A DNA stretch of 64,000 bases from Patescibacteria group bacterium (GTDB taxonomy: Bacteria > Patescibacteriota > Minisyncoccia > JACQLN01): NCBI GenBank assembly GCA_038065095.1, contig JBBTRR010000001.1, forward strand, positions 113,546 through 177,545, read 5' to 3'. Below, piece after piece: positions 21,412 through 63,601 of this stretch; positions within the stretch are counted from its first letter, which is position 1; every line of letters begins with the position of its first letter. A program made the translations under genes and the position numbers. The notes under the pieces are model-generated. The model was not told the DNA's origin. It saw nothing but the letters and a program-made list of their open reading frames with translations, and did no database searches.

Positions 21412-24400
21412 ATGAGTTATTTTACTAGCAAGCGCCGTGAGCTCGCTAGCAAAGTTGTTTCTTTCGGTTTGATGGTAACAACTTTTGCTTGGCTCGTAGG
21501 CGTTCCTACTGCTGGTGCAGCTACAACCGCCGAGACGATCGCGCTTTTAATGGCACAGATCCAATCTTTGACGGCTCAGTTAAATGCACTAAGCGGTTCT
21601 AGTTCTACTGCAACTGCTTGCAACATTACTAGAGCATTAACAGTTGGCGCACGAGGCGACGACGTTACATGTTTACAAGGTTATTTAAAATCCACAGGTC
21701 ATTTTAGTGTTACACCTACTGGTTACTTCGGAAATGTAACCAAAGCTGCAGTTGCAGCTTGGCAAGCTGCCAATGGTGTTAGCCCAGCCGCTGGTTATTT
21801 TGGCGCTATTTCTAGGGCTAAATATACAGCTGTTGCTGGTTCTGTTGTGACTACGCCAACCACTCCAACCACACCAACGACTCCCGCGACACCAGCAGGA
21901 ACTGGTTTAACAGTTTCTGCGGCTTCAGATCAGCCGGCCGCTGGTTTGTTCGGTGAGAGCTTTGCTTCAAGGCCTTTCACAAAAGTTAATCTTACAGCTT
22001 CTGCCGATGGCGACATAACGGTTAAGGGTATGACAATAGAAAGAACTGGACAAGCTATGGATGCTGTATTTAGCGGTGTTATTCTTTTAGATGAAACCGG
22101 AACAAGAATCGGTACATCTAAAACCTTAAATTCCAACCACCAAGCTGTATTTAGCGATCAGATAGTTGTTAAAGCCGGAACAACCAAAGCAATTACAATT
22201 GCTGGTGATTCCGACAGCAACCAAGACGCTTATGCTGGCCAGGTGGCTAGTTTGACTTTGGTGGCGGTAAATGCTGGTTCGGCTACAGTAAATGGATCAT
22301 TGCCAATAGTCGGTAATGCTATGACAGTTAATTCCACATTATCTATTGGTACATTAACGATTGCTACTGGCGCACGCGAACCTGGTTCTAGCCCAACTAA
22401 AGAAGTTGGTTTAACCAATTACACTTTTGGTTCTATTAAGATGACAGCTGGTTCAGCTGAAGATGAAATTGTAAAATCAATTCGTTGGAATCAATCTGGT
22501 TCTGCAGCTTCCAGCGATTTAGCTAATGTTCAAACTTGTATTGATGGCGGAGAATGTTACGCAGTAACAGCTTCTACCGATGGTAAGTACTATACATCCG
22601 CACTTGGTGCTAGCGGTTTAAAACTTGCTAAAGGAGAATCCAAAGATATTTATGTTAAAGGCGATATAGTTTCTGGTTCGGGAAGAACAGTTAGCTTCGA
22701 CTTATACAGATATGGCGACATAAAAGTAACTGGTACAGTTTATGGTTACGATATATTGCCAAGTTCTGCTGAAGGCGGTGCTTCGGCTACAGACCACAAC
22801 GGTACTTTCCAAGCAGCCAATCCTAACTATGATGGTTGGCAGGTAACGATTTCTAACGGCACAATAAATGTTACAAAATCCAACACAGTTGCAGCTAGTA
22901 ACATTGCTGTTAATTTGTCTAGCCAAGTATTAGGCGGTTTTGATGTAGAAGTAAAAGGTGAAGCTATCAGTGTGGCTTCAATGAACTTTGATGTTTCTAC
23001 AGTGGAAGGCGCAGGCACAGGTGGTGCTATAGACAGCATTGATATTACTAGCATCAGCTTATACGATAAAGCTGGTAATGTAGTAGCTGGTCCAGTTGAT
23101 GGTGTAGCTGGCGGTAATAATGGTATTCAGTTTACTGATTCCGTTACTTTCCCAATTGGTACAAATACTTACACCATTAAAGGAAAAGTTGGTACAGACT
23201 TTTTAAGCAACGACCAAATTTTAGCTTCTACAACTCCAAGTTCCGATTGGTCAACAGTAAAAGGCAGTGTAACTGGTAATTCAATTACACCAAGTCCAGC
23301 TGCTGCTGTTACGTTTAATACGATGACGGTAAAAGCTGCCGCATTAGCTGTTTCTGTTTCTCCAACTCCTTCAGCTCAAAATATTGTAACTGGTTCCAAA
23401 TCTTTCACTTTTGCCAATTACATATTTGATGCTTCCGCTTCTGGTGAAGATATTCGCACTACGCTTATAAAGACCAAATTTACTGGTACGAGCAATACAG
23501 CTGATCAGTTACAGAGTTGTCAGTTGTTTGATGGTGCAAACGCTCTTACTACGGGAGGTAATACCAACAGTCCTGCTAACACTGTAGCTACTGCCGATGA
23601 TCTTACATTCAATTTGGATAGTGGTTTGATTACACCTAAAGGAACAGTTAAGACTATTAAGTTAATATGTGATATTAAAGGTAATACGGACACAGAAGCT
23701 ACGGCCGGCACGACAACCTTTAGTTTGGGCGTGACTAATGCTGTGGGTAGCATAACTTCTACAGGTATGACTTCGGGCCAAGCGGTTACCGAAACTATTA
23801 CTGCGGCTAATGGTCAAGCTATGACATTGCAGAGCGGTGGTTCGCTTACGGTGGTTCTAGATTCTTCTAGCCCAGCCTTAAAATGGATTCAAGCAGGTGC
23901 AACGGATCAAACCTTGGCTGTGTTTAGAGTGAATGCTACTTATGAAGATATAAAATTAGAAAGCATGGGTCTTCAGATTGCTACATCAACCAGTGCATCT
24001 GATTCAATGGCTTCCAATACTCCTTCCGATATTGCGAAGATAAGTTTGTGGAATGGTTCTAAGAAAATTGGTGAAGTATCGTCATTAAATAATGACTATG
24101 CTACAACTACATTTAGCACGGCATGGGGTGCCACAGAAGCTGATTATACAGTGTTGAAAGATACTCAATTATTGATTACGGCTAAAGGTGACATTGGGAC
24201 CATTGGCACAGTTACTAATGCGTATCCTGGTCACTTGATTGTTGTTAACCATGATGCCGGTACTTGCGCTACGCACGTTACTGGGAGCACAGATACAAAT
24301 TGCGGTGCAAAAGGTGTAGGTGCGTCTTCTGGTACGGCTCTATATTCTGCTGGTTCAGATACAGCTTCTAATGGAGCTAGAATTGCAAAAGCTGTTCCTA

Positions 24401-25203: not shown

Positions 25204-25249
25204 TAACCTCTTGTGCTCCTTCGACCTTGCGTCGGAGGAGGGTTATGAA

Positions 25250-25286
25250 AACAACCCCCGCCTGATTAGGCGGGGGTTGTTTTTTA
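25250..25286 (+). terminator. Rho-independent terminator after the surface-protein gene
   Basis: AACAACCCCCGCC-TGATTA-GGCGGGGGTTGTT followed by TTTTT. Confidence 0.7.
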
Positions 25287-25308: not shown

Positions 25309-26094
25309 TTGGCTATGTTTATGCTTAATAAAAAAATATTGACGGTTTTAGTTATTGTGTTATTAGTGATTATAGTTATTGTGGCTCGTTATATATTTGA
25401 GAATAAAGAGACTGTGCCTCAGTCATATCAGAGTTCTGATAGTTTTGATACCACAAAAGAGAACTTAACTAATAATTCTAATCTATCTATAAACAAAATT
25501 CCTAAATATATTGGCCGACCTTTAGACGAGGTTATTTTTGGCAAAGGTTTTACTAATCCAGGAGATGATATTGTAGAAAAAAAACGAGGAGATTTAAAAG
25601 TTTTAGCTGCTGTTTTAAACGCAAGTCCGATGGGAAATGCCGGTGTGGATGATTGGATTGCAGTGGGAGTTATAAAAAAGTTTTTTAACGATTATGAGGG
25701 CGTGCGAGATGTTTGGGAATATGCTGGTGTGTTATACCCAGATAACGCCCTTTCTTTTGCTAATCTGGGAAATTTATATGCTTTTTATTTACATAATAAT
25801 GTTAAAGCAGAATTAAATTTTAAAAAAGCTATTAAAAATGATCCTTACCAGCCTAGTTACTATCTTGGTTTTGCTGATTTCTATAAGAATGTTTATACAG
25901 AGAAGAAAGCAGAAGCGCCGAAGATTTTATTAGATGGTATAAAAGTTATTAAAGATGTTAATTTAGTTTTAAGTTTAGCTACTTACTATAGAGATACAGG
26001 TGATAAGGCTAATGCTTTGAAATACTATGAAGAAATTTTAAAAATGGAGCCTAATGCTGCTGGTATTCAAGATGAAATAAACCGCTCAAGGTAG
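25309..26094 (+). CDS. Membrane-anchored TPR-like repeat protein
   Basis: N-terminal TM ILTVLVIVLLVIIVIVARYIF. The C-terminus has TPR-like helical repeats (...ANALKYYEEILKMEPNAAG). Confidence 0.5.
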   Translation: MAMFMLNKKILTVLVIVLLVIIVIVARYIFENKETVPQSYQSSDSFDTTKENLTNNSNLSINKIPKYIGRPLDEVIFGKGFTNPGDDIVEKKRGDLKVLAAVLNASPMGNAGVDDWIAVGVIKKFFNDYEGVRDVWEYAGVLYPDNALSFANLGNLYAFYLHNNVKAELNFKKAIKNDPYQPSYYLGFADFYKNVYTEKKAEAPKILLDGIKVIKDVNLVLSLATYYRDTGDKANALKYYEEILKMEPNAAGIQDEINRSR

Positions 26095-26148: not shown

Positions 26149-28545
26149 ATGAAAAAACCACGGGTTTTAATTTTTTCTTTGGCTTATTTCCCCTTAGTGG
26201 GAGGAGCCGAAATAGCCGTCAAAGAGATTACAGATCGCTTAGCTTCTCCGACGTCTGTCAGCCCCGACGTTACATCGGGGGAGCTCGGAGCCCCGACCCA
26301 TTCTGGCGTCGGGGTTGATTTTGATTTAGTAACTTTACGGTTTAATAAAAAACATTTACCAAAAGAAAAAATAGGTAATATAAATGTTTTTAGAGTTAAA
26401 GGAAGTAAATTATTTTTTCCTCTAAAATCATTATTTTTAGCTAGGAAATTACATAAACAAAATAATTATAAAGTAGTTTGGTCTATTATGACGGCTTACG
26501 CTGGTTTTGGTGTCTTATTTTTTAAGATATTAAATCCAAAAGTTAAGTTTTTATTGACACTTCAAGAAGGTGATTCAGAAAAACATATATTAAAACGTGT
26601 CGGAATATTTTATCCATTATGGAAGTATATATTTAAAAAAGCTGATTACATTCAAGTTATAAGTAATTATTTAGCCGATTTCGCCAAAAAATACGGAGCA
26701 AAATGCCCTATAGAAGTTGTGCCAAACGGGGTCAACTTAGACAAATTTAAAACCCCCTACTTCGCTAAAGCTACGCAGGGCAAGCAAAATTCAAATACCA
26801 AAACTATCATTACTACGTCTAGGTTGGTTTATAAGAATGGGGTGGATATTCTTATCAGATCAATGGCCATGCTAAAAGCTAAAAGTCCCGATAGCAAAGC
26901 TATCGAGGATCCTCGACAAGGTCGGGACTATAAACTAATTATTGTTGGTGATGGTCCAGATAGATCAAAATTAGAACAATTAACTAAGGATTTATCAGTT
27001 GATGATATAGTGCAATTTGTCGGACATGTTGATCCCAATGAAATTCCAAATTATTTATATAAAGCCGATGTTTTTGTACGGGCTTCTCGTTCAGAAGGTT
27101 TAGGTAATTCTTTTTTAGAAGCTATGGCGGCGGGTTTGCCGGTTATAGGAACTTCAGTAGGTGGAATAGTTGATTTTTTAAAAGACGGGGAAACAGGTTT
27201 TTTGGTTGAACCAGAAAATATAGAAAGTTTAACTAATAAAATAGATTGGGTTTTAAGTAATCAAGATATTTCAAAAGAAGTTGCTTTAAATGGTAAAAAT
27301 CTAATTTTTAAAAATTATTCTTGGGATGGTATATCCGAAAAAATTGGAAAAATTTTTAAAAAAAATATTGTAAATATAAGATTACTTTTAGCTACAGGTA
27401 TATATCCTCCAGATATTGGCGGGCCAGCAACATATGCCAAACTGTTAGTAGATGAATTACCTAAGAGGGGAGTTTCTATTGATGTTGTTTTTTACGGTGA
27501 TAAAGGTGTTTCAAGATCAATTCCAAAAGGAATTAGGCACATAGTTTTCTTTTTTAAATGCTTTTTTAAAGCAATTAAAAGTGATGTTGTTTTGGTTCAG
27601 GATACTATAAGCGCTGGTTTGCCGGCACTACTAGCCTCTAGATTGGCTCGTAGGAGGTTTTTAATACGCGTACCAGGGGATTACGTTTGGGAACAGTCCG
27701 TTCAACGTTTTGGGGTTAAGGACTCAATAGATGATTTTCAAAATAAAAAATATGGTTTTAAGGTGGAGTTCTTAAGAAGTATCCAAAAGTTTGTAGTTAG
27801 TAATGCTGATGTTGTTATAACACCAAGTAATTATTTTAAAGATCTAGTCAAAACTTGGGTCAAAGATAAGAATAAAGTTATTACTATATATAATGGAATA
27901 GATATAGCGACAAGCGACAAGCGACAAGCGACAAGAAATTCTAAAACAATTGTCTCGGTTGGTAGGCTAGTACCGTGGAAAGGTTTTGATATGGTTATAG
28001 AAATGATGATAGATTTACCCGATTGGAAACTTGTTATAATTGGAGATGGGCCAGAGTATAATAATCTCAAATCTCAAATTTCCCTACTTCGCCCACCCTC
28101 CGCTCAAGGCTACGACGTGGCACAGCAAGGCTCCGAAGGGCAAGCAAATTACCCCTCAATAAAACTCGGGGCAGGCAAATTACAAGATCGAGTTATACTC
28201 ACAGGTGCAATTTTGAGAGAAAAAGTTTTGGAATATCTGGCTAATTCAGAAGTATTTGTTTTAAATACTTCGTTTGAAAGTTTTTCATACCAAATAGTTG
28301 AGGCTATGGCTATGGGTATTCCCGTGGTTACTACAAACATAGGTAATATTTCGGAGATAGTTAGAGATGGAATTGATGGAGTTTTGGTTGAGCCTAACGA
28401 TAAAGATGGCTATATAAATGTTATTAAAAAAATTAATAATAATTTTGAGTTTAGAAATAGTTTAATAAAAAGTGCTATAGAAAGATCTAAGGATTTTTCT
28501 ATAGAAAGAACTTTAAATAGCTTAGTATTAGTTTTAAAAAGATGA
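26149..28545 (+). CDS. Tandem-fused double GT4 glycosyltransferase (two GT-B/GT4 modules in one ~800-aa chain)
   Basis: Module 1: VGRLVYKNGVD...IIVGDGPDRSKLEQL...EGLGNSFLEAMAAGLPVIGT. Module 2: VGRLVPWKGFD...VIIGDGPEYNNLKSQI...ESFSYQIVEAMAMGIPVVTT. It contains two GC-rich in-frame insertions and heptamer repeats at 27906 and 28064. Confidence 0.8.
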   Translation: MKKPRVLIFSLAYFPLVGGAEIAVKEITDRLASPTSVSPDVTSGELGAPTHSGVGVDFDLVTLRFNKKHLPKEKIGNINVFRVKGSKLFFPLKSLFLARKLHKQNNYKVVWSIMTAYAGFGVLFFKILNPKVKFLLTLQEGDSEKHILKRVGIFYPLWKYIFKKADYIQVISNYLADFAKKYGAKCPIEVVPNGVNLDKFKTPYFAKATQGKQNSNTKTIITTSRLVYKNGVDILIRSMAMLKAKSPDSKAIEDPRQGRDYKLIIVGDGPDRSKLEQLTKDLSVDDIVQFVGHVDPNEIPNYLYKADVFVRASRSEGLGNSFLEAMAAGLPVIGTSVGGIVDFLKDGETGFLVEPENIESLTNKIDWVLSNQDISKEVALNGKNLIFKNYSWDGISEKIGKIFKKNIVNIRLLLATGIYPPDIGGPATYAKLLVDELPKRGVSIDVVFYGDKGVSRSIPKGIRHIVFFFKCFFKAIKSDVVLVQDTISAGLPALLASRLARRRFLIRVPGDYVWEQSVQRFGVKDSIDDFQNKKYGFKVEFLRSIQKFVVSNADVVITPSNYFKDLVKTWVKDKNKVITIYNGIDIATSDKRQATRNSKTIVSVGRLVPWKGFDMVIEMMIDLPDWKLVIIGDGPEYNNLKSQISLLRPPSAQGYDVAQQGSEGQANYPSIKLGAGKLQDRVILTGAILREKVLEYLANSEVFVLNTSFESFSYQIVEAMAMGIPVVTTNIGNISEIVRDGIDGVLVEPNDKDGYINVIKKINNNFEFRNSLIKSAIERSKDFSIERTLNSLVLVLKR

Positions 28546-29183
28546 ATTTACAAGTAAAAAAAGAACATTATTTTAGGAAAAAATATAATAGTTTAAATAG
28601 GTTTATTTCTTATTTTTATCAAATAGATTTGGTTACTAGCTTGACTGCGTCCCAAGAATCAAAGATTTTAGAAGTTGGTATTGGCAATGCTTTTGTTTCC
28701 GACTATTTAAAAAAGATTGGCTACCACGTTACAACTTGTGATTTTGATGAAAGATTAAAACCAGACATTGTGGCAGATATTAGAGAGCTAGCCATAATGG
28801 ATAGGGATTTTGATATAGTTACTGCGTTTGAGGTTTTAGAGCATATTCCTTTTGAGGACTTTGATAAAACACTTAAAAAACTAAAAGAGGTTAGCTCTAA
28901 GTTTGTGGTTATTTCTTTGCCGTATCGATCAACTTCTATAGAATTTATATTAAAAATACCCTTTGGCCGCACTTTTTTTAATAGGGATTTTTTGGTGTTT
29001 TTCCTAAGATTTCCTTGGTTTTTTAAGGGTTTTTCAAGTTCGGGTCAACATTATTGGGAGATAGATGGTTATAAATATAGGTTGGGTAAGGTATTAAAAA
29101 TTTTAAAAAATAATTTTAAATCCGTTAAAAAAATCCGCCCAGTTTTGGATAGTTATCAGCTATTTTTTATTCTAGAAAGATGA
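28542..29183 (+). CDS. Class I SAM-dependent methyltransferase
   Basis: ILEVGIGNAFVSDYL (motif I) and DIVTAFEVLEHIPFEDF (motif II/post-II). Confidence 0.65.
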   Translation: MNLQVKKEHYFRKKYNSLNRFISYFYQIDLVTSLTASQESKILEVGIGNAFVSDYLKKIGYHVTTCDFDERLKPDIVADIRELAIMDRDFDIVTAFEVLEHIPFEDFDKTLKKLKEVSSKFVVISLPYRSTSIEFILKIPFGRTFFNRDFLVFFLRFPWFFKGFSSSGQHYWEIDGYKYRLGKVLKILKNNFKSVKKIRPVLDSYQLFFILER

Positions 29184-30433: not shown

Positions 30434-31483
30434 ATGAAAAATCTTTTATTCATAACTCAAAAAGTAGATAAAAATGATGATGTTTTAGGAGTGTATCATC
30501 GTTGGGCAGAAGAATTAGGAAAAAAGACAGATAAGCTCAATGTTATTTGTTTGTATAAAGGGCTGTGTGATTTAGATAAAAATATAGGCGTTTTTTCTTT
30601 GGGTAAAGAAGGTGGAATTAGCCGTATAAAATATATTTACAGATTTTATAAATATATTTTTTCAATAAGGAAAGAATATGATTCAGTTCTTGTCCATATG
30701 AATCCAGTATATATAATTCTAGGTGGAGTTTTTTGGAAAATTATGGGGAAGAAAATATTTTTATGGTACAACCATCCAATGGGTAATATGATGGCTAAAG
30801 TTGCAATATTATTTTCTAATAAGGTTTTTTGCACTTCGCCATACTCTTTTTCTGCAAAGTATAAAAAAACAGAACTTATGCCGGTGGGCATTGATACTTT
30901 TTTATTTAGATTTGACCCAAGTGTAGTTAAAAAAAACAACAGGATTTTATGTTTGGGGCGAATATCGCCCATAAAAAAAATAGAGGTTTTAATAGAGGCT
31001 GTTAAAATTTTAGATAATAAGAATATCGATTTTGAACTTTTAATTGTTGGTTCGCCAAGTTCAGATTTGGACAAGGCATATCTAGTTAGTTTAAAGGAAA
31101 TTTCTTCGGAACTGGTTTTAAAGAATAAAATAATTTTTAAACCATCAGTTCCAAATTATAAAGCTTTCGAAATATATAATTCAACTCGTATTTTTATTAA
31201 CCTAACTCCTACTGGCAGTTTTGATAAGGCCATTTTAGAAGCCATGGCTTGTGAAATTCCTGTACTTGTTTCAAATAAAACATTGCTATCTATTTTTCCT
31301 GAATCAATCAGAAATTTTTGTATTTTTAAAGAAAATGATTCACAAGAATTATCTAGAAAAATATTGGCTCTATTTTTATTAGATAACACAGGTGTTAGAG
31401 ATATTGGAAAGAAAAGTCGCGAGCTGGTTGTAGCAAATCACAGCCTAGATAGTTTAATGCAGAGTTTAATTAAGATTGTTTAA
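30434..31483 (+). CDS. GT4-like glycosyltransferase
   Basis: CLGRISPIKKIEVLIEAVK...LLIVGSPSS...GSFDKAILEAMACEIPVLVSN. Confidence 0.7.
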   Translation: MKNLLFITQKVDKNDDVLGVYHRWAEELGKKTDKLNVICLYKGLCDLDKNIGVFSLGKEGGISRIKYIYRFYKYIFSIRKEYDSVLVHMNPVYIILGGVFWKIMGKKIFLWYNHPMGNMMAKVAILFSNKVFCTSPYSFSAKYKKTELMPVGIDTFLFRFDPSVVKKNNRILCLGRISPIKKIEVLIEAVKILDNKNIDFELLIVGSPSSDLDKAYLVSLKEISSELVLKNKIIFKPSVPNYKAFEIYNSTRIFINLTPTGSFDKAILEAMACEIPVLVSNKTLLSIFPESIRNFCIFKENDSQELSRKILALFLLDNTGVRDIGKKSRELVVANHSLDSLMQSLIKIV

Positions 31484-52182: not shown

Positions 52183-52209
52183 TTGATATATCAGATATTT
52201 ATAAAAGTT

Positions 52210-54113: not shown

Positions 54114-55948
54114 ATTTAATTAAAAAGTACTGGCTCATTGTTATGTTGTTGGCTCTTTTAGTTGGTGTTTTATATATCGCACCCCAAATCATAATTAAAA
54201 TGAGAGTAGAGGGTTTGGGACATAAATTTATTTTATTTCAATTCATTGAGTTGGCTGACGGTGGCGATGCTTATTTTCAATTTGCTAGAGAGATTTATGA
54301 AGGTCATTTTCCTCCTGGAGATTTATTCTCTGACAAAAATTTACCGAATATTTATCCTTGGTTACCCCCGCTTTTTTTTGGTTTTTTAATTAAAATTCTT
54401 AAAGATATAAATTTAGCCTATATAGCTGCTAATTTTATTTTTCCAGCACTTTTTTTTACATTATTCTATTTTTTAGGGCAGGTTATTTTTAAAAAAAATA
54501 AATTATGGTCTTTATTTCTTGCTTTGGTGGCTGTCTTAACCCCGATGCCGCTTTTGGCAGACAGAATGTTTTTTAGTTTTAAATTATTTGGTGATATTTT
54601 TTTAAAAAATTTTTATCCTGAAGTTAAGACTATCTTGCCTACTCTTTACTTTTCTAGAGCTGATTATCCTCTTCTTACTCACATTTTTTATTTGCCAGCT
54701 ATAATCACTCTCTTTATTTTTTGGCGTAGACCTGGGTTTAAAACGGCGATGTTGGCTGGTTTTACAGGAGGATTATTAGCTTACGTTTATTTTCATAAGT
54801 GGGTATATTGGATGGTTGTGTTAGGTTTCCTTTTTTTATTATCTATATTTTTTCTAAAAAAAGAAACCAAAAGATTACAACTTTTTTTAGTTTTAGGTTT
54901 TACCACCATCTTAACTAGTATTCCTTATTTTATAAATTATTTTAGATTAGCCAGCTTCAATGGTTCTAAGGATTTAATACAAAGATTATCTCTTGAAGTG
55001 GGGAGGTCGGTAAATTTATCTGTTTGGCCTCAATATATAATTTATTTTTCTTTGGCGGTATTAGTTTATTTGATTTATTTTAAAAAAGATTTACCATTAA
55101 CCATTTTGTATTGGTCGTTTTTATTAGCAGCTTTTTTTGTTTGGAATATTCAGGTTATAATCGGTTTTGTTCCGCACTCCGATCACTGGCCAAGGGCAAT
55201 AAATCCCTTGATTTTTTTAGTTATTTTTGATTTGGCTTATAATTTAGTCCAAAGAATAATAAAGCGAGTGCCCACATTAAACAGGGTCTTTATTTTTAGC
55301 ATGGTTTTATTGATGGTTTTATTGGTCTTTAAAAAAACGATAAACGCAGTTAAATTTTTAGAAGTCCCAAATGATCAAATAATTTCTAACTATACACTAC
55401 CAGAGAGTGTTTTAGATTCTTATTCTTGGATTGAAAAAAACTATAGCGAACCTATTGTGATTTCGCCTTCTTTTATATCATCTATTTATCTTTCTGCTTT
55501 TACTTCTAGTCGTCCTTTTTTGCCATGGGGTGGCGTTAGTCCTATGTCTAATTACTCTTTAGAAGAGTTATTTTTGAAATCTAATAAGAATTTTTATATA
55601 CCAAAAAACATTTTTACAGAAAGGCTCGAGAAAAATGGTTTGCCGTGTACTAAAAAATGTAATTTGCTCTATGTTAATGCAAATTTTAAAGACACTAGAC
55701 TTTATTTATATCAACTTTATTTTATGGATAAAAATAATACGCAAAATAGAGATATTCCTGCATATAAAATCGAAGAATTATCTCAACGTTATGATAAACT
55801 AGAAACCAGTTGGAAAAAAACAGGGGCTGATTTGGTATATCTTGGTCCATGGGAGAATATTTTTAATGGTTCTATTTTAAAAAATGATAAAGATCTATCT
55901 CTTGTTTATTCTAATAAAGAAGTGGAGATTTATAAAATTATAAAATGA
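54110..55948 (+). CDS. GT-C fold membrane glycosyltransferase (ArnT/PMT-like; polyprenyl-P-sugar dependent), intact 612-aa copy
   Basis: About 12-13 TM helices. Loop-1 motif ADGGDAYFQFAREIYEGHFPPGD. C-terminal periplasmic domain. Translationally coupled to the upstream GT2. Confidence 0.65.
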   Translation: MNLIKKYWLIVMLLALLVGVLYIAPQIIIKMRVEGLGHKFILFQFIELADGGDAYFQFAREIYEGHFPPGDLFSDKNLPNIYPWLPPLFFGFLIKILKDINLAYIAANFIFPALFFTLFYFLGQVIFKKNKLWSLFLALVAVLTPMPLLADRMFFSFKLFGDIFLKNFYPEVKTILPTLYFSRADYPLLTHIFYLPAIITLFIFWRRPGFKTAMLAGFTGGLLAYVYFHKWVYWMVVLGFLFLLSIFFLKKETKRLQLFLVLGFTTILTSIPYFINYFRLASFNGSKDLIQRLSLEVGRSVNLSVWPQYIIYFSLAVLVYLIYFKKDLPLTILYWSFLLAAFFVWNIQVIIGFVPHSDHWPRAINPLIFLVIFDLAYNLVQRIIKRVPTLNRVFIFSMVLLMVLLVFKKTINAVKFLEVPNDQIISNYTLPESVLDSYSWIEKNYSEPIVISPSFISSIYLSAFTSSRPFLPWGGVSPMSNYSLEELFLKSNKNFYIPKNIFTERLEKNGLPCTKKCNLLYVNANFKDTRLYLYQLYFMDKNNTQNRDIPAYKIEELSQRYDKLETSWKKTGADLVYLGPWENIFNGSILKNDKDLSLVYSNKEVEIYKIIK

Positions 55949-56745
55949 GTAAAAATATTTTGTTAAAATTTAAAAAGATTCCATTAAAAATTGTTGATGA
56001 AAAACCTTTATTTATTCCAGAAGAAGATTTTAAAAATATTGAAGAGGGTCTACATTCTGGTTTTTTAAATAGATTTAAGACTTTTCTCAAGAGATTTCCA
56101 CAAATTTATTCTTTTATTTTTTATTTTATAGCCCCAGCAATTTTTCTTGGCCGAGAACCAAAATCAATATTTAGCGTTCTTAATAAAGATAGTTTGATTA
56201 TAGATTTGGGCTCTGGTAATCGCAGACTTAGCAAGAATATTGTAAATGTAGATATCCATCCATGGTCAGAAGTAGATATTTTGGCCGATGCCCACGATTT
56301 GCCTTTTGAAGATAACTCTGTTGATGGAGTTGTTCTTTCTTGGGTGATAGAGCATATGGCTGACCCTTTAAAAGTAGTATCGGAAATACATAGGGTCCTT
56401 AAAAAGGGTGGCTATTTTTATCTCTCAACCAATTTTATAACTCCCTACCATCCATCTCCAAAGGATTATTATCGCTGGACCGCTGAAGGTTTAGGGGTAT
56501 TGTTAAAAGATTTTAATGTTTTAGAACTAAAACCTCACGTTGGTCCAACCTGTGCTCTCTTATCTGTTTTGCAAGAATGGTTGTCTTTGGTTTTATCTTT
56601 TAATATAAAAATATTAAAAGATTTTTTATGGATATTTTTTGTGGTAGTAACCTCACCATTAAAATTTTTGGATCTAATCTTTATTCATTATAAATCAGCG
56701 GATATTATAACCGCAGGCTTTTATGTTATTGCCAAAAAAGGATAA
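55945..56745 (+). CDS. SAM-dependent methyltransferase (Methyltransf_11-like) with hydrophobic segments
   Basis: IIDLGSGNRRL and DGVVLSWVIEHMADPLKVVSEIHRVLKKGGYFY. Confidence 0.65.
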   Translation: MSKNILLKFKKIPLKIVDEKPLFIPEEDFKNIEEGLHSGFLNRFKTFLKRFPQIYSFIFYFIAPAIFLGREPKSIFSVLNKDSLIIDLGSGNRRLSKNIVNVDIHPWSEVDILADAHDLPFEDNSVDGVVLSWVIEHMADPLKVVSEIHRVLKKGGYFYLSTNFITPYHPSPKDYYRWTAEGLGVLLKDFNVLELKPHVGPTCALLSVLQEWLSLVLSFNIKILKDFLWIFFVVVTSPLKFLDLIFIHYKSADIITAGFYVIAKKG

Positions 56746-56799: not shown

Positions 56800-57822
56800 A
56801 TGCAGTTTATTCTAGGGTCCTCAGTAGCTCCAGTAGCTCCAGTGGTTACAGAAACACCGTTTCGTTTGCCGCTTGGAGGTGGTTCCACAGATTTGCCTTC
56901 ATACTACGAAAAGTACGGTGGTTTTATTTTTGGAGTTGCTATCGATTTTTATATTCATGTTTTTTTGAAGCGTTTAAGAATAGACCGACGTATTCAGTTT
57001 CATTACACTGCTTGTGAGACGGTAAACTGTTTACACGAAGTGCATCATGGTATAGGTCGCGAGGCATTAAGAATGGTTGGTATTGATAATTCCATTAGTG
57101 TGACATTTAATGCTGATTCTCCATCTGGTACTGGGCTCGGTTCTTCGGGGAGTTACGCTGTCGGCCTTTTAAATGGTCTTTATGCTTTGGAAGGAAAGAC
57201 TAAGGATCCAAGGTTTTTGGCAGAGAAAGCTTTTGAAATAACCACCAACTTGGGTTGGTGTGATGGTAAGCAAGATCCATATCTTGCGGCGTATGGTGGC
57301 TTTACGGTGCTTAATATTGACCAAAACGGTCATGTTGCGGTCTCTAAGCCAGATATAAGGGAATACACCATAGATCGCTTTTTAAGCCAGACCCTATTAT
57401 TTTATACCGGTACCAAAAGAGATGGACAAAGTGGTGATATTCTTAAAGAACAGGATGAACAACGTGTTTTAGAACTAAAGCATGGAACTAAAGAAATAGG
57501 ATTAAAAATTTTGGTAGCTTTTGAAAATGGCGATTTAGATGAGTTTGGCCGGTTGATGGATAAGCATTGGCATATTAAAAGACAGATGTCTGGCAAAATC
57601 AGTTCTGACAAGTTTGATGCCATTTACGAAATGGCAAAACAGGCTGGGGCTTTGGGTGGAAAATTGGTAGGCGCTGGCGGCGGTGGCTATTTTATTTTTT
57701 ACTGCCCCACGTCGCTTTCCAAGAGTCGTGTTTCTATTGCTTTAACAGAAGCTGGTTTGCAAAGAGCCGATTTCGGTATTGATTATAAGGGGTCTACGAC
57801 TGTAACCATACCAAGGATGTAG
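56800..57822 (+). CDS. GHMP-family sugar kinase (HddA / galactokinase / fucokinase-like)
   Basis: PSGTGLGSSGSYAVG (GHMP motif II) and KLVGAGGGGYFIFY (motif III). Confidence 0.75.
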   Translation: MQFILGSSVAPVAPVVTETPFRLPLGGGSTDLPSYYEKYGGFIFGVAIDFYIHVFLKRLRIDRRIQFHYTACETVNCLHEVHHGIGREALRMVGIDNSISVTFNADSPSGTGLGSSGSYAVGLLNGLYALEGKTKDPRFLAEKAFEITTNLGWCDGKQDPYLAAYGGFTVLNIDQNGHVAVSKPDIREYTIDRFLSQTLLFYTGTKRDGQSGDILKEQDEQRVLELKHGTKEIGLKILVAFENGDLDEFGRLMDKHWHIKRQMSGKISSDKFDAIYEMAKQAGALGGKLVGAGGGGYFIFYCPTSLSKSRVSIALTEAGLQRADFGIDYKGSTTVTIPRM

Positions 57823-58007: not shown

Positions 58008-59546
58008 ATGTCAAGAAAAGTTCTTATTATATATCCACCAAACCAGTTAAACCCCACTGAAGCTCCTCGTCCAGAAGGGTCATTGGGCCCTCTTTACTTA
58101 GCTTCGGCTTTGGAAAATGCAGGTATAGAAACTGATCTGGTGGATGCTTCTGTAGGAACGGAAGACGATAAGCTGGAAGACACTTTTAACAACCCAGTGA
58201 TGCAACTAAACGGTCTTATAAGGATTGGTATGTCTTTTGATCGTATCCGTGAGTTTATCGCTTTAGGCGGTTACGATGTGGTAGCGATTCATTCAAATTT
58301 TACTCCCCAGACCCGTATGGTTTTGGAAACAGCCAAAATAATAAAGGAGATCAATCCAGAAATTTTGGTTATCAGTGGAGGGGTAAATGCTCGGCATATT
58401 CTGGAACGTCTTTTGGGTATAGGTTTTGTTGATTTAATCTGCATCACCGAAGGAGAAAGGATTATTGTTAAAATAGTTAAACAGTGGAGGCTTAATCGAT
58501 CATTTGACGGTGTAGATGGTGTTGTCTTTATGGAATCGGGCCGGTTGGTTTATCGGCCAGTAAATTCCGATAGTGTGGTCCAAAATTTAGACGAGTTGCC
58601 TGTGCCGGCGTGGCATAAATTGCCTTTGGCTAAATATGCCGAGATTACTTCTCCGCATGGCGATGTGGTTTTGAGTGAGAAATATATTTATGCTCCCATG
58701 ATGACTTCTCGCGGTTGCCCATTTAAATGTGCTTATTGCCATATATCGTTAGAAAAAGAAAAACATGACGATATTGGTAATCTAAGACTCAAGTCTGTGG
58801 ATCGCGTTATGCGTGAAATAGAAATTTTAAAATCTTTAGGTGTTACCAAGGTTTACATCGAAGATGATAGCTTGCTTGCCAAGAAAGCTCGCGTTAAAGA
58901 AATTTTTACACGCCTTTTGGGTGCTGGCTTAAAAATCGCCGATGTAAATGGTGTCAACCTTGTTCATCTTTTTGTAAGAGACAGAGCTACAGGAAAATTA
59001 AGGGTGGATAGAGATTATTTAGAGTTGCTCTGTGCATCTGGTTTTGATCAAATTAGTTTTCCTGTTGAATCCGGTGTTCAAAGGGTTTTGGATAAATATG
59101 CTACCGGTAAACTCGTTTTAGAAACAATGGACATAGCTGGGTTGGTAAGGGTCGCTTCCGATGTAGGTATTTCTTGTCCTGTCGGTATCATGATGGGTTT
59201 TCCAGATGAAACAGAGGCAGAGATTCTCCAAAGTGTGGAATTAGCAAAAAAGTTAGTTGATGCTGGAGCCAAGTATTGTTCTTTTTATATTCCCATTCCT
59301 TTTCCGGGTAGTCAGCTTTATCATATGGCTATTGCCGGTGGACATCTGGATGCAAATTTTGATCCAGACATTATGAACTGGCATCGGCCGGTTATGAAAA
59401 ACACTACCGTGCCGCCGGAAAGAGTTTTGGAACTTCGTGAATGGGCTTGGCGTTCGGTTAATCGAGATGACTATGTAGCTGAACGGTTGAGTAAAAACAT
59501 AGGTACAAGGTGGAGTTCTTTTAAGCCAGTTAGCGATGAAAATTAA
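58008..59546 (+). CDS. B12-binding radical SAM domain protein (class B radical SAM enzyme)
   Basis: N-terminal cobalamin-binding-like Rossmann domain, then TSRGCPFKCAYCH (C-x3-C-x2-C radical SAM cluster motif). 512 aa. It has its own promoter-like TTGACA/TATGGT upstream. Confidence 0.8.
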   Translation: MSRKVLIIYPPNQLNPTEAPRPEGSLGPLYLASALENAGIETDLVDASVGTEDDKLEDTFNNPVMQLNGLIRIGMSFDRIREFIALGGYDVVAIHSNFTPQTRMVLETAKIIKEINPEILVISGGVNARHILERLLGIGFVDLICITEGERIIVKIVKQWRLNRSFDGVDGVVFMESGRLVYRPVNSDSVVQNLDELPVPAWHKLPLAKYAEITSPHGDVVLSEKYIYAPMMTSRGCPFKCAYCHISLEKEKHDDIGNLRLKSVDRVMREIEILKSLGVTKVYIEDDSLLAKKARVKEIFTRLLGAGLKIADVNGVNLVHLFVRDRATGKLRVDRDYLELLCASGFDQISFPVESGVQRVLDKYATGKLVLETMDIAGLVRVASDVGISCPVGIMMGFPDETEAEILQSVELAKKLVDAGAKYCSFYIPIPFPGSQLYHMAIAGGHLDANFDPDIMNWHRPVMKNTTVPPERVLELREWAWRSVNRDDYVAERLSKNIGTRWSSFKPVSDEN

Positions 59547-59631: not shown

Positions 59632-60540
59632 ATGCGATTTGCTATTACAGGTGGGTGTGGTTTTATCGGCTCACAACTTTCTATACATCTTTTGGAGCTA
59701 GGCTATGATGTTAGAGTTATAGATAAAATTGCTATTGGATCTAGTCCTTACTGGAGTGGTTTTGATTACAGTAAAATAGATTATTGCGAAGTTGATATTT
59801 GTTCTCCAGGAGATATGGATGAATGTTTTAAAGATGTTGATTACGTTTTTCATTTAGCTAGCTATGCGCGAATTAAAGATTGTTTAGCTAATCCAAATTT
59901 AGCCCGAAAAATTAATGTTGGTGGTACGCTTAATGTTTTATTAGCAGCAGAAAAAAATAAGGTTAAACGTTTAGTGTATACCAGTTCATCTTCTGCTTAT
60001 GGAGATCAAGATAATTTGCCATGGAAAGAAGATATGCCAATTAAGCTTCTTAATCCGTATGCTTCTACTAAATATGCAGGCGAAATATTGTGCCAATTAT
60101 TTGGCGAAGCTAATCGCTTAGAAACTGTAAGCCTAAGATTATTTAATGTTTATGGTTCGGTGTCGGCGATTGAAGGAAAAGTTGATTGCCCGAGCGTGGT
60201 GGAAATTCTTTTGAAACAAAAAAGAAATGATCAAGCACTTACTATTATTGGAGATGGTAAACAAAAAAGAGATTTGGTTAATGTTAAAGATGTAGCCAAA
60301 GCTTTTGTTGCGGCTTCAACCAGTAAGCTAGTCGGGAAAGGAGAAGTTATTAATATTGGTTCTGGAAGTAATTATTCGGTATCAGAAATTGCTAACTGGA
60401 TAGGTGGAGAGACTACCAAATTAGATAATCGCTATGCTGAAGCTTATGAAACGCTGGCCGATATTTCTAAAGCCAAAGAGTTACTTAATTGGCAGCCCGA
60501 GCATAATCTTAAAGATTGGATTGAATCCAATAAAAAATAA
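59632..60540 (+). CDS. NAD-dependent sugar epimerase/dehydratase (extended SDR; GalE / UDP-sugar 4-epimerase-like)
   Basis: ITGGCGFIGSQL and YASTKYAGE (YxxxK). 302 aa. Confidence 0.8.
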   Translation: MRFAITGGCGFIGSQLSIHLLELGYDVRVIDKIAIGSSPYWSGFDYSKIDYCEVDICSPGDMDECFKDVDYVFHLASYARIKDCLANPNLARKINVGGTLNVLLAAEKNKVKRLVYTSSSSAYGDQDNLPWKEDMPIKLLNPYASTKYAGEILCQLFGEANRLETVSLRLFNVYGSVSAIEGKVDCPSVVEILLKQKRNDQALTIIGDGKQKRDLVNVKDVAKAFVAASTSKLVGKGEVINIGSGSNYSVSEIANWIGGETTKLDNRYAEAYETLADISKAKELLNWQPEHNLKDWIESNKK

Positions 60541-60552: not shown

Positions 60553-61560
60553 ATGTCTAATAAAGTTTTTTCCTTGGCGCTCGTGGGTGCGGGTGGTATT
60601 GCTTATAAATGGGTCAAAGCTATCAGTAAAGTTAAAAATTGTTCTTTAAGGTTGGTAGTAGATGTGGATATAAATAAAGCAGAATTACTTTCTAAAAATT
60701 ATAAAAATTGTGAACATACAGATAAGTTAAATGATGTTTTATCAAGATTGGATATAGATGCTGTCATAGTAGCAGTGCCCAATAGTATATCTGCCAAGAT
60801 CTCTAGAGAAATTATTAAGTCGGGTAAACATGTTTTATGTGAAAAACCAGGCGCTGTTAATTCCAAAGAATTAAAATCCATTATTTTAGAGGCTAAAAAA
60901 TATAAGAAAAATTTTATGGTCGGGTTTAATCATAGATTCCATCCAGCCTTTTTACAGGCAAAAGAAATTTTTGATAAAGGTGAAATAGGTGAAGCTATGT
61001 TTATAAATTCTAGATATGGTTTTGGTGGTCGGGAAAACTATAATAAAGAATGGCGTTTTAATAAAAAAATAAGCGGGGGCGGAGAAATAATTGACCAAGG
61101 TGTTCATATGATTGATATGGCCCGTTTATTTTTAGGAGAATTTAATGAAGTTAAGGCTTATACGCCTAATCTTTTTTGGGGTGGAAATGTGGAAGATAAT
61201 GGTTTTATACTTTTAAAAACCATAAAAAAACAAATAGCTGCAATTCATGTTAGCTGGACTAATTGGAAATGGATTCATTCTTTTGAAATTATGGGTACAT
61301 TAGGCTATTTACGTATAGATGGTTTGGATCAGCGTTATAACGGGCCGGAGAAATTAACTATAGGATATCGTGATCTTTTATTTAAAAAATCTCCACAAGA
61401 AAAAGTTATAATATTTAAAAACGAAAAACCCGAAGATTCTTTCACTAGACAGTTAAAAGAATTTTTATCTGCTATAAGTGAAGATAGAAATTCTGTTCCA
61501 GATAGTCGTGATGCTTACGAAGTTTTAAAAATAGTTGATAAAATTTATGAAAAAAAATAA
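60553..61560 (+). CDS. Gfo/Idh/MocA-family NAD(P)-dependent sugar oxidoreductase
   Basis: LALVGAGGIAYKWV Rossmann, and the family's HVLCEKP motif. Confidence 0.8.
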   Translation: MSNKVFSLALVGAGGIAYKWVKAISKVKNCSLRLVVDVDINKAELLSKNYKNCEHTDKLNDVLSRLDIDAVIVAVPNSISAKISREIIKSGKHVLCEKPGAVNSKELKSIILEAKKYKKNFMVGFNHRFHPAFLQAKEIFDKGEIGEAMFINSRYGFGGRENYNKEWRFNKKISGGGEIIDQGVHMIDMARLFLGEFNEVKAYTPNLFWGGNVEDNGFILLKTIKKQIAAIHVSWTNWKWIHSFEIMGTLGYLRIDGLDQRYNGPEKLTIGYRDLLFKKSPQEKVIIFKNEKPEDSFTRQLKEFLSAISEDRNSVPDSRDAYEVLKIVDKIYEKK

Positions 61561-61987
61561 AGGATTGGTTTTGGTTCTTGGTGGAGCTGGCTTTATAGGA
61601 TCTCATTTAGTAGACGCATTACTTAAAGATAATTATAGAGTTAGAGTATTAGACAACCTAGCCCCACCTACCCATAACGGCAAATTGCCCTCTTGGTTTA
61701 ACAAAAAAGCAGAATTTGTTAAAGGGGATGTTCGTAAGAGACAAGACTTGATTCGTGCTATGGTTGGGGTTGATTTTATTTTTCACTTGGCAGCCTATCG
61801 GATTAATATACCTAGACATCAAAGTATGGACATTTCAAAATTGAAATCATTAGGTTGGGCGCCCAATCATTTTATCGAAGAAAATGTTTCGGAGTATGTT
61901 GACTGGGTAAGGTCATTTCCTGAAGCAAAAGCTTTTTTTAAAAAAAGCCAAGTATCGATGGGGAAAAAGGGTATAATTAAGGTATAA
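61547..61987 (+). pseudogene. Internally deleted NAD-dependent epimerase/dehydratase remnant
   Basis: Has the N-terminal LVLGGAGFIGSHLV and a C-terminal tail (LKSLGWAP...), but lacks the catalytic S...YxxxK core. It is about 147 aa against an expected ~310. Confidence 0.5.
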
Positions 61988-62054
61988 AGGCTGATATATT
62001 GTAGCTTAAAACCCAGCAGGGTATTTCCTTATTACACTTGAAAACTATAGAACC

Positions 62055-62213
62055 ATGAAAGCTGATTGGTCACAAACTAATTCTAGCTTTGTTTATTATG
62101 GTCCTTGGGAGAAACAGTTTAGCCAAGTAAATTTTTCTAAAGATTCTAGATTAGAATTAATTTATAAAAATTCTTTAGTCGAAATTTTTAAGATTAAAAG
62201 TGACACTTTGTAA
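62055..62213 (+). pseudogene. C-terminal remnant (52 aa) of a third GT-C paralog
   Basis: SFVYYGPWEKQFSQVNFSKDSRLELIYKNSLVEIFKIK matches the C-termini of 35720-37174 (ADFIYYGPWEKQFSKTNFDKKDKFELVYKNPEVSIYKI) and 54110-55948. Stops lie in frame upstream. Confidence 0.6.
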
Positions 62214-62254: not shown

Positions 62255-63601
62255 ATGAGCAAAAAAACCGTATTTTTAGCCATACCTAATCATATTTCTG
62301 CGTCAGATTTATTACGTACTCATTACTTGGAGTATTTGGCTTCGAAATATAAAGTTATTGTGATAACACCTTTTTTAAATTCCAATGATGCAGTTAAACA
62401 AAAGCATTTTTTATCACCAGATGTGGAGTATAAAAAAAGAGATTTAGAAAACCCAAGATTTTGGATGTTTTTTAAATTTTTACGTATTTGTTGGGTTAAC
62501 GAATTTGATTATATTACTTCTATAAAATATTGGTATAAAAGGCCTAATTATAAAAATAGTTTGGCCAGGCGGATAGTTAGAACTATAGGCAGGCCTTTTT
62601 CTAAATTTTTAACAGCGAATTTTTTTACTAAAGTTGAGTATAGATTATTGCCCAAGTCAAAAGATTTTACCGAACTAGTTAAACAACATAATCCAGTATT
62701 GGTTATTACAGCCACCCCAGGTTTTGATCCGTGGGAAGCCGAAATAATTTTTTTAGCAAAACGTGAAAAAACTCCTACAGTAGCGGTTAATTTTAGTTGG
62801 GATAATTTAACTACTAATTCTAAACACATTCGCAAAACTGATTTTTTGATTGCTTGGAATAATATTATGAAAAAAGAGGCTTTAGAGATTCATAACTATA
62901 CTACCGCTAAGGTTTTTGTATCTGGTACGCCAAGGTTTGACCCTTATTTCGATGTTGCTCAATCAGAGCCAACCAAAGAAAAATTTTTGGTAAGCAAAGG
63001 CTTAAATCCAAGTTATAAAACTATTTTTCATACTACGGTGACCAAAGCGTATCCTTTCCAGAAAAAATATATCTATGATCTAATAAAACTTAGAAAAGAA
63101 GGAAAGATACCCTATGTGAATTTATTTATACGAATTCATCCCTTAGATATTTATGATAATTATAGAGAGTTTTTTAATATGCCCGATTTATATATAGAAC
63201 CCGCCGGCCGATCAGGCAGTAAAGCAGTGGAGATGAATTATCAAGACTTGCTTAATCTTAAATATTCTCTAAAATATACCGATTTAAATATAAATTATGC
63301 CTCCACCATTTCTATAGAAGCCTGTATTTTTGATAAGCCTATTATAAATATTGGTTATTTAGATCGTTTTAAATTGGCTTACGAATTTAATCATTACATT
63401 CCTATATATAAGAGTGGTGCTGTAAGGCTGGCCAAAACAGACGAAGCTTTAAAAGATTTAATAAACTTGTATTTAGCAGACCCATCTTTAGATGGAGCTA
63501 ATAGAAAAAAAATTGTGTTAGATTACGTTATTTTTTTAGATGGCTTATCTTATAAGAGAAGTGTAGATGCTTTAGAACAAATAATAAAATCTGTTATATG
63601 A
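62255..63601 (+). CDS. GT-B-fold transferase, paralog family member 4 of 4
   Basis: NFSWDNLTTNS, IRIHPLD, INYASTISIEACIFDKPIINIGY. Confidence 0.55.
   Translation: MSKKTVFLAIPNHISASDLLRTHYLEYLASKYKVIVITPFLNSNDAVKQKHFLSPDVEYKKRDLENPRFWMFFKFLRICWVNEFDYITSIKYWYKRPNYKNSLARRIVRTIGRPFSKFLTANFFTKVEYRLLPKSKDFTELVKQHNPVLVITATPGFDPWEAEIIFLAKREKTPTVAVNFSWDNLTTNSKHIRKTDFLIAWNNIMKKEALEIHNYTTAKVFVSGTPRFDPYFDVAQSEPTKEKFLVSKGLNPSYKTIFHTTVTKAYPFQKKYIYDLIKLRKEGKIPYVNLFIRIHPLDIYDNYREFFNMPDLYIEPAGRSGSKAVEMNYQDLLNLKYSLKYTDLNINYASTISIEACIFDKPIINIGYLDRFKLAYEFNHYIPIYKSGAVRLAKTDEALKDLINLYLADPSLDGANRKKIVLDYVIFLDGLSYKRSVDALEQIIKSVI

Follow-up and report, generated by a model that had tools for sequence, protein, structure and literature searches.

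A stretch of 64,000 nucleotides from a groundwater Patescibacteria group bacterium (contig JBBTRR010000001.1, positions 113,546 to 177,545; here called the window) carries, from 21.4 kb to its end at 64 kb and for at least 10 kb beyond, a locus in which the gene for a large surface protein is followed by the gene for a membrane-anchored tetratricopeptide repeat (TPR) protein and then by a glycan island of more than 40 kb. We consider it probable that this is a conserved Parcubacteria cell-surface locus, that the island encodes modules made of a family 2 glycosyltransferase (GT2), a flippase and a membrane transferase of the GT-C fold, and that these modules act on the glycan which the island itself builds. 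The role of the GT-C family in extracytoplasmic glycosylation modules of this composition is well supported because fold, homology, gene order and gene fusions agree, and the same lines of evidence uphold the lipid-linked-sugar mechanism that an initial annotation of this DNA had proposed for the GT2 and GT-C proteins. Its further proposal that the surface protein may be the acceptor of the GT-C enzymes gained no such support. The gene layout was drawn from a listing of open reading frames (ORFs) and Pfam scans across the window (Table 1), and all of the elements named in the initial annotation (the GT2s, GT4s, TagF-like proteins, methyltransferases, deacetylases and GT-C copies) were recovered at the coordinates given for them. 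The G+C content of the island is 29-33 %, compared with 36-42 % in the surface-protein gene and the flanking housekeeping genes; the set upstream in the window consists of ftsZ, the gene for class II ribonucleotide reductase, efp, comEC, ndk, murD and clpB.

The 612-residue membrane protein of the island has a GT-C fold as judged by structure prediction. Its AlphaFold2 (AF2) model, for which 29 homologues served as input, has a pLDDT (predicted local distance difference test score) of 92.2 and a pTM (predicted template-modelling score) of 0.90, and the first 29 matches in a Foldseek comparison with the PDB are all GT-C enzymes, among them STT3, PglB, AftA, DPY19, ArnT, AftD, Emb, PMT, ALG3 and PimE. 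The GT-C identity given in the initial annotation therefore stands at the level of fold, whereas membership of GT39, GT83, STT3 or YfhO by sequence does not. No Pfam family was found at E <= 0.01 for the 612-residue protein or for the 485- and 153-residue products of its two-gene paralogue, the PMT, PMT_2 (GT39/GT83), STT3 and YfhO (PF09586) models being among those left unmatched. The 612-residue protein has no NCBIfam match either; a profile of its family searched against all PDB sequences gave a chance match only (E 0.74), and hhalign returned a probability of 0.5 % for the same profile against a PMT_2 protein from a related locus (L047). The loop that follows the first transmembrane (TM) segment contains the motif D50-[G/E]...Y...A-R60-E61...G-H, in which D50, R60 and E61 are each present in 28 of 29 sequences and position 51 is G or E. 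This loop would lie outside the membrane, because TM1 starts after two N-terminal lysines. A word-indexed search returned 40 homologues, all of them without Pfam domains and the few named members labelled Parcubacteria or Patescibacteria, and a full hidden Markov model search of 1.84 billion representatives found 1579 clusters of the family at E <= 1e-3 and 329 at E <= 1e-30. The family is sizeable yet has no curated model, being absent from Pfam, NCBIfam and the PDB. Many Parcubacteria metagenome-assembled genomes (MAGs) carry two or three paralogues per contig; L028 has three within 14 kb, and L025 and L039 have two each, close together.

The two GT2 enzymes of the island had been annotated as polyprenyl-phosphate-sugar synthases, and our comparisons agree with that assignment, since both proteins align with ArnC, GtrB and dolichol-phosphate-mannose synthase (DPMS) and both end in two hydrophobic helices (residues 216-257 and 233-278). 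They are 50 % identical to each other, match Pfam Glycos_transf_2 (E 1.4e-31) and cover almost the full length of the NCBIfam ArnC model (E 1e-47 and 1e-52), with PgfS as the second-best model for both. An alignment of the enzyme encoded from 53193 with solved ArnC runs over the full length (E 1.7e-43, residues 9-304), as do those with solved GtrB (E 1.5e-24) and an archaeal DPMS (1e-19). Neither protein ranks as an ArnC orthologue, as their scores on the ArnC equivalog model NF007986 (160.6 and 175.7 bits) lie well under the 529-bit cut-off.

The association of GT2 and GT-C is supported by gene overlaps, by orthologous loci and by fusions, through which GT2, GtrA and GT-C parts are recovered together. 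In the window the GT2, GT-C and methyltransferase genes are joined by 4-nt overlaps at 54110-54113 and 55945-55948, and the coupling of the first two that had been noted earlier is kept in orthologues. Other gene callers start the GT-C at an ATG 33 nt further in, which gives a protein of 601 aa and a 30-nt gap to the GT2; the longer form of 612 aa, with its 4-nt overlap, is favoured by the orthologues. We surveyed 30 GT-C loci from about 20 genomes and found a GT2 homologue within about 6 kb of the GT-C gene at about 24 of the 30, directly adjacent in 11 and separated only by an epimerase gene in 7 more. The same succession of the three genes is found in L017, L018 and L022, with the GT2 directly 5' of the GT-C and a 4-nt overlap between these two, and in L021, where the GT2 and GT-C ORFs overlap. 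A triad of GT-C, epimerase and short GT2 recurs across Parcubacteria MAGs and recalls pgfS-pgfE-pgfM. Nine members of the GT-C family have an N-terminal extension, which is a GT2 in five, a GtrA_DPMS_TM domain in one, a methyltransferase in two and a GT4 in one. The genes at 43610 and 52183, which flank the GT2 genes of the window, encode methyltransferases of the type that is fused, and the coupled and fused methyltransferases together suggest methylation of the lipid-linked or transferred sugar. On the sequence evidence of orthologues and fusions, we take the pairing of GT2 and GT-C to be real.

The second GT-C of the island had been described as split. It is indeed present as two ORFs, but these are not a product of decay, because the two-gene form is conserved in orthologues. 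The 153- and 485-residue proteins are 35 % and 36 % identical to residues 9-148 and 150-612, respectively, of the 612-residue paralogue. At the junction (...AAT TTT GAT GGA GCT TAA) the ATG of the second ORF lies inside the end of the first and the second ORF overlaps the first stop. This structure recurs unchanged in 23 independently assembled contigs (Hainich groundwater and other runs), and the same break point occurs in orthologues from Parcubacteria Gr01-1014_3 (L040) and SURF_37 (L041) despite very different DNA and G+C content; there the protein-level identities are 55 and 45 % for the N-terminal piece and 51 and 38 % for the C-terminal piece. The junctions of L040 and L041 read ...LNF[D/N/Y]G(T)A-stop with the ATG 8-11 nt before the stop; this ATG persists although the codon contributing its A and T varies (GAT, AAT, TAT). 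Three more clusters at 50 % identity (P0199, P0200 and P0205) start at the same break. A frameshift pseudogene or an assembly error is ruled out by the 23 identical contigs and by the break kept in L040, L041 and the three clusters, and we judge a programmed frameshift unlikely, as the ATG is kept while the codon that it overlaps changes. Because the break point and the ATG/stop overlap are kept across species, we conclude from these sequences that the split GT-C represents a conserved gene fission, a two-gene form under selection and not a pseudogene. The island does contain a GT-C remnant, as previously reported, at 62037-62195. The truncated epimerase gene stands directly before this 53-codon piece, and we read the arrangement as a probable deletion scar.

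The surface protein at the head of the locus had been described as a secreted, Thr/Ser-rich protein of 1263 aa with a PG_binding_1 domain, encoded directly 5' of the glycan island, and this description is accurate. The domain spans aa 81-124, where it scores 37.5 bits in Pfam (E 2.6e-9; cut-off 23 bits), and is preceded by a hydrophobic, signal-like N-terminal segment. The protein contains 13.0 % T, 12.1 % A, 11.6 % S, 10.4 % G and 0.8 % Cys (24.6 % Ser+Thr) and has a pI of 4.6 and a mass of 128.5 kDa, a residue composition typical for surface-layer (S-layer) proteins. More than 1144 matches form its family, every one of them 1150-1290 aa in length, and the conservation extends over the full length with a mean column identity of 47 %. 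The AF2 model that covers residues 161-1263 (pLDDT 83) shows sandwich domains in an all-beta chain. Its fold matches in the PDB are generic arrays of Ig-like and macroglobulin domains (PrgB, alpha-2-macroglobulin, integrin legs) with no S-layer protein among them, a result that speaks neither for nor against an S-layer. We regard the protein as a predicted wall-anchored protein of the surface-layer type, and as putative with respect to a lattice.

The surface-protein gene appears from its sequence context to form a separate transcription unit, with a promoter-like site in front of it and a strong terminator-like hairpin behind it. The region between clpB and the surface-protein gene (20583-21411) comprises 830 nt, is bounded by the clpB terminator and contains no ORF of 50 aa or more; given the position of the promoter-like site, the transcript would have a long leader of about 480 nt. 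No Rfam family above chance was found in this region, the leader has no DNA conservation with relatives, and a search of the region for remnants of two small genes that relatives have at this place found none.

The initial annotation had asked whether the glycan island always neighbours the peptidoglycan-binding surface protein in relatives, and in all five relatives that we examined it does. L004, L006/L007, L046 (Harrisonbacteria), L047 and L048 all have clpB, (two small genes), surface protein, TPR protein and GT4 cluster in this order, with surface proteins 42-50 % identical to that of the window. After the GT4 cluster, L004 and L006/L007 have genes for a Wzx-like protein, a methyltransferase and a TagF-like protein, and L046, L047 and L048 have one for a short GT2. 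The distance between the surface-protein gene and a GT2-GT-C pair is 38 kb in Gr01-1014_3, similar to that in the window. In the organism studied here the island continues past the window end for at least 10 kb (L049, 11787-21347), where it contains genes for a GNAT protein, a third full-length GT-C paralogue (605 aa, 36 % identical), an epimerase, a nucleotidyltransferase and another GT2, followed by NeuB, a 2-epimerase and a CMP-sugar synthetase (a nonulosonic-acid pathway) and a 739-aa protein with Wzy_C and TPR regions. The block from NeuB through the epimerase and synthetase to the Wzy_C/TPR gene is also found in a Yanofskybacteria MAG (L050). O-antigen ligases belong to the Wzy_C family, as do the O-oligosaccharyltransferases PglL and WsaB, and the Wzy_C-TPR gene is for that reason the conventional candidate for joining a finished glycan to a protein or other acceptor.

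In the mechanism that we favour, the island would hold at least two multi-component transmembrane glycosylation modules, with a third just outside the window. A GT2 of the ArnC/GtrB type would transfer a single sugar from a nucleotide sugar to polyprenyl phosphate on the cytoplasmic face. In the 41818 module the adjacent NodB-type deacetylase, which we place in the cytoplasm because it has neither a signal peptide nor a TM segment, probably strips an N-acyl group from the lipid-linked sugar. ArnD and LgmC carry out such a deacetylation in the Arn and Lgm pathways. The lipid-linked sugar would then be flipped by the Wzx-like protein or by a flippase encoded elsewhere, a GtrA domain being fused to the GT-C in one relative, and the GT-C-fold enzyme is predicted to transfer the sugar to an acceptor outside the membrane by means of an acidic residue that is conserved in the first external loop. 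One GT-C paralogue would work as two polypeptides, the 153-residue piece with the predicted catalytic loop and the 485-residue piece. The acceptor is most likely the glycan or wall polymer built by the rest of the island (the GT4s, TagF-like GT-Bs and tailoring enzymes), and the Wzy_C-TPR enzyme encoded at the distal end may in turn attach this glycan to the surface protein.

Several observations weigh against this mechanism. Neither tblastn nor a scan of small ORFs with several TM segments revealed a GtrA-like ORF in the window, and the match of the Wzx-like protein (E 6.6e-4) is under the Pfam cut-off. The deacetylase of the 41818 module does not score as ArnD. As no sequence model of any GT-C family matches the membrane proteins, their enzymatic activity rests on the predicted fold. 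A backbone polymer is hypothetical because neither the window nor the flanking regions of the relatives' loci showed a priming phosphoglycosyl transferase, a polymerase or an LCP ligase. The island also contains broken genes (45853-46470, 61535-61987 and 62037-62195). Finally, the housekeeping gene clpB is equally syntenic with the surface-protein gene, so that synteny alone is weak evidence of a functional link.

The initial annotation had proposed, with an envelope polymer as the other option, that the GT2/GT-C modules directly O-glycosylate Ser and Thr residues of the surface protein. This reading, which would resemble actinobacterial Ppm1/Pmt, streptococcal GtrB/PgtC2 or the Pgf system of S. 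mutans, is the main rival to ours, though we consider it rather unlikely. The surface protein does offer abundant Ser and Thr, including a Pro/Thr linker (TPTTPTTPTTPATP), and in the window and each of the five relatives (six of six genomes) the glycan island beside its gene includes a GT2. The corresponding position in L047, 9 kb downstream, is occupied by a short GT2 together with a PMT_2-type GT-C, and the GT-C-epimerase-short GT2 triad of the relatives mirrors pgfS/pgfE/pgfM. However, the surface-protein gene appears to have its own promoter-like site and a strong terminator, the linker Thr is not kept across the family, in which the consensus is PxPxPxP, and the rest of the protein is predicted to consist of folded beta domains with no disordered Ser/Thr tract. 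The same kind of search returned more than 1144 matches for the surface-protein family and 40 for the GT-C family, so many carriers of the surface protein must be without this GT-C. The GT-C genes themselves lie amid genes for TagF-like proteins, deacetylases and sugar-tailoring enzymes, and the Wzy_C-TPR enzyme is available for ligation to protein.

A bolder form of the idea is that the GT-C family, whose named members are all from the candidate phyla radiation (CPR)/Patescibacteria and whose STT3/AglB-like fold includes a C-terminal globular domain, glycosylates the Parcubacteria surface-layer protein, with one lineage using a two-subunit enzyme; we hold this to be improbable. If it were true, the two-subunit lineage would have its catalytic-loop module and its acceptor-side module on separate polypeptides, an arrangement of GT-C for which we know of no described precedent.

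It is very unlikely, in our judgement, that the GT-C enzymes modify a lipid-linked molecule of the membrane or wall, such as a glycolipid, a polymer resembling lipoteichoic acid (LTA) or a peptidoglycan precursor, as ArnT does with lipid A and YfhO and GtlB do with LTA. The triad of ArnC-like GT2, NodB-type deacetylase and GT-C (41818-43606; L017/L018) follows the Arn/Lgm logic, and decoration of LTA and wall teichoic acid by such modules is documented (PMC8035078), but LtaS, TagO and TagGH were not seen in the window, lipid biosynthesis is reduced in the CPR, and an acceptor cannot be read from sequence. Very unlikely too is an en bloc transfer by an AglB-like oligosaccharyltransferase of a lipid-phosphate oligosaccharide started by the GT2 to Asn or Ser/Thr of the surface protein: STT3 and PglB are the best Foldseek matches of the GT-C model (E 7e-7 to 2e-5) and the AglJ model is matched by the GT2s as well (E 1.6e-14), but Pfam STT3 is not matched, no WWDYG-like motif stands among the conserved C-terminal positions of the GT-C family, and N-X-S/T sequons are not enriched in the surface protein (19 observed, about 16.5 expected from composition).

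Table 1. Features of the cell-surface locus in the window.
Feature	Position	Strand	Remarks
Promoter-like site TTGACA-18-TAAAAT	20897-20926	+	11/12, consensus match only; ~480 nt 5' of surface-protein start codon
Surface protein, 1263 aa	21412-25203	+	Signal-like N-terminus, coiled stretch, PG_binding_1, Pro/Thr linker, all-beta sandwich-domain chain
Terminator-like hairpin	25247-25284	+	17-bp stem, 9 GC pairs, T tail; closes surface-protein transcription unit
TPR protein, single N-terminal TM anchor	25309-26094	+	Follows surface-protein gene in all relatives examined
Double GT4, 811 aa	26110-28545	+	
S-adenosylmethionine (SAM) methyltransferase	28542-29183	+	
GT4	29333-30427	+	
GT4	30434-31483	+	
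Wzx-like membrane protein, candidate flippase	31487-32887	+	11 hydrophobic segments; weak Polysacc_synt match, E 6.6e-4
SAM methyltransferase	32853-33608	-	48 % identical to that at 34912-35718
TagF-like GT-B	33635-34987	+	Glyphos_transf C-terminal part; best NCBIfam match BFO_1060 family glycosyltransferase
SAM methyltransferase	34912-35718	+	
Two-gene GT-C paralogue, C-terminal gene, 485 aa	35720-37177	-	
Two-gene GT-C paralogue, N-terminal gene, 153 aa	37164-37625	-	TM1, D-E...ARE loop, two more TMs
GT4	37696-38757	+	
Nucleotide-sugar 6-dehydrogenase, TuaD-like UDP-glucose dehydrogenase	38880-40205	+	
Short-chain dehydrogenase	40208-41050	+	
Transaldolase / fructose-6-phosphate aldolase family	41028-41753	+	
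GT2, ArnC/GtrB type, two C-terminal TM helices	41818-42663	+	Pfam, NCBIfam, TM scan
NodB-type deacetylase	42665-43606	+	No signal peptide or TM segment
Methyltransferase	43610-44506	+	Type fused to GT-C in relatives
TagF-like GT-B	44509-45846	+	
Broken deacetylase paralogue	45853-46470	+	Two ORFs, 75 aa + 108 aa
TagF-like GT-B	46478-47854	+	Best NCBIfam match BFO_1060 family glycosyltransferase
Acyl-decoration cassette	47838-52182	+	AcpS-type phosphopantetheinyl transferase (PPTase), FkbH, acyl carrier protein (ACP), MaoC dehydratase, short-chain dehydrogenase/reductase (SDR), GNAT-domain protein
Methyltransferase	52183-53187	+	Type fused to GT-C in relatives; 42 % identical to that at 43610
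GT2, ArnC/GtrB type, two C-terminal TM helices	53193-54113	+	Pfam, NCBIfam, PDB alignment, TM scan
Intact GT-C-fold membrane protein, 612 aa	54110-55948	+	AF2 model and Foldseek; no family model matches
Methyltransferase, three hydrophobic segments	55945-56745	+	4-nt overlap with GT-C gene; orthologues (58-66 % identity) keep position
GHMP kinase	56800-57822	+	Best match heptose-7-phosphate kinase HddA
B12-binding radical SAM enzyme	58008-59546	+	Methyltransferase-like
NAD-dependent sugar epimerase/dehydratase	59632-60540	+	
GFO/IDH/MocA sugar oxidoreductase	60553-61560	+	
Truncated epimerase	61535-61987	+	N-terminal 150 aa only
GT-C remnant	62037-62195	+	Last 53 codons of further paralogue; 49 % identical to C-terminus of split copy
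TagF-like GT-B	62255-63601	+	Island runs on past window end

The island as a whole contains four GT4 genes, four genes for TagF-like GT-B proteins and seven for SAM methyltransferases. The TagF-like proteins have partial matches in Pfam, mostly to the C-terminal part (E 3e-12 to 5e-4), and in NCBIfam they reach 25.9 bits on TarF (cut-off 550) and 47.5 bits on the BFO_1060 family (cut-off 200). On these sequence scores they do not belong to the TagF/TarF CDP-glycerol glycerophosphotransferases and are best called TagF-like GT-B proteins. The proteins encoded from 33635 and 46478, with scores far under the cut-offs, may transfer CMP-activated sugars rather than glycerol phosphate, an idea that we base on their best match to BFO_1060 and on the NeuB and CMP-synthetase genes nearby in the organism and its relatives. 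The acyl cassette includes an FkbH protein (TIGR01686, E 3.9e-94) and a 76-aa ACP (49803-50033) with a GWDSF motif, and judged by its gene content it looks like a pathway that decorates an amino sugar with a glyceryl-ACP-derived acyl group; the same series of PPTase, FkbH, ACP, MaoC, SDR and GNAT genes recurs beside GT-C genes in L024, L025, L027, L028 and L029.

Three genes of the window are linked to cobalamin, namely those for the class II (B12-dependent) ribonucleotide reductase (3043-5946), a corrinoid adenosyltransferase (6451-7023) and the B12-binding radical SAM enzyme (58008-59546), the last of which lies inside the glycan island. This hints at a dependence on external cobamides. Among the housekeeping genes is one (13709-14923) for a protein of 404 aa that contains a lamin-tail domain (LTD, E 2.9e-9).

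Multi-component transmembrane glycosylation systems, composed of a GT-A enzyme, a flippase and a GT-C enzyme, have been defined for the wall polymers of Gram-positive bacteria (PMC8035078). In CsbB/GtcA/YfhO, GtlA/GtcA/GtlB and GacI/GacJ/GacK/GacL, as proposed here, a membrane-linked GT-A/GT2 enzyme makes a C55-P-sugar and a multi-pass GT-C enzyme transfers the sugar outside (PMC8035078). GacK of the group A carbohydrate pathway is a Wzx-type flippase and an accepted alternative to GtrA (PMC8035078). The genes of these systems lie within wall-glycan loci and their GT-Cs are often recognisable by structure alone (PMC8035078), which is likewise the case here. Unlike the Gram-positive systems, the GT-C studied here has no match to YfhO or to another Pfam family, belongs to a CPR host, has one paralogue in two-gene form, and has a methyltransferase translationally coupled to it in the window and fused to it in relatives. 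The same logic of GT2 and GT-C serves protein O-glycosylation in streptococci (PMC11092751). There, GtrB/PgtC2 and PgfS/PgfE/PgfM1/PgfM2 combine a GT2, in the latter case with an epimerase, and a GT-C on extracytoplasmic Ser/Thr-rich regions (PMC11092751). The rank of PgfS among the models matched by our GT2s and the GT-C-epimerase-GT2 triad of the relatives are points of likeness. In contrast, the streptococcal GT-Cs belong to the YfhO family and act on disordered Ser/Thr tails, whereas folded beta domains make up most of the surface protein in the window.

The ArnC/ArnD/ArnT pathway and the Bordetella LgmA/LgmC/LgmB pathway share with the window the succession of a GT2, a NodB-type deacetylase without signal peptide and a GT-C, and ArnC is the best homologue of both GT2s. 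The differences are that the GT2s score only 161-176 bits against the cut-off of 529, that the deacetylase is not recognised as ArnD, that the GT-C is not of the PMT_2/GT83 type and, presumably, that this type of organism has no lipid A. In Geobacillus, Paenibacillus and Aneurinibacillus, slg loci adjoin S-layer genes, and in Haloferax the trio AglD/AglR/AglS (a GT2, a Wzx-like protein and a GT-C) adds the final sugar to the S-layer glycan. Like the slg loci, the locus described here has a surface-protein gene beside a large glycan locus and a candidate O-oligosaccharyltransferase of the Wzy_C family, and its HddA-like kinase and transaldolase suggest a heptose-type pathway. Unlike them, its surface protein is anchored by PG_binding_1 and not by SLH, its Wzy_C protein has TPR repeats, and neither an ABC exporter nor a priming transferase was seen; moreover, its surface protein is a putative lattice former. 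The mycobacterial AftA (GT85), which is among the top structural matches of the GT-C model, shares 12 % identity with it and no sequence-level relationship, and it comes from a different organism with a different wall chemistry.

That a GT2, a flippase and a GT-C act together in surface-glycan loci is already well established for Firmicutes, Proteobacteria, Actinobacteria and Archaea. The novelty lies in the sequence family of the GT-C, its conserved two-gene form and its setting in a conserved Parcubacteria surface locus. The remark in the initial annotation that no such system has been characterised in small-genome, CPR-like bacteria agrees with our literature searches, which found no characterised system of S-layer glycosylation or GT-C enzymes in CPR/Parcubacteria. 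A CPR genome paper stated that the formation and structure of the envelope "remain unclear" and speculated on "a glycosylated S-layer" (PMC5220378). For the CPR/Patescibacteria, whose envelope is essentially uncharacterised, the locus supplies concrete parts in the form of a widespread surface-protein family with more than 1100 clusters, a syntenic glycan island and a GT-C family with about 1,600 clusters. The fusions with GT2, GtrA and methyltransferase domains point to how this GT-C family works, and the conserved gene fission can serve as a natural experiment on how GT-C enzymes are built from modules.

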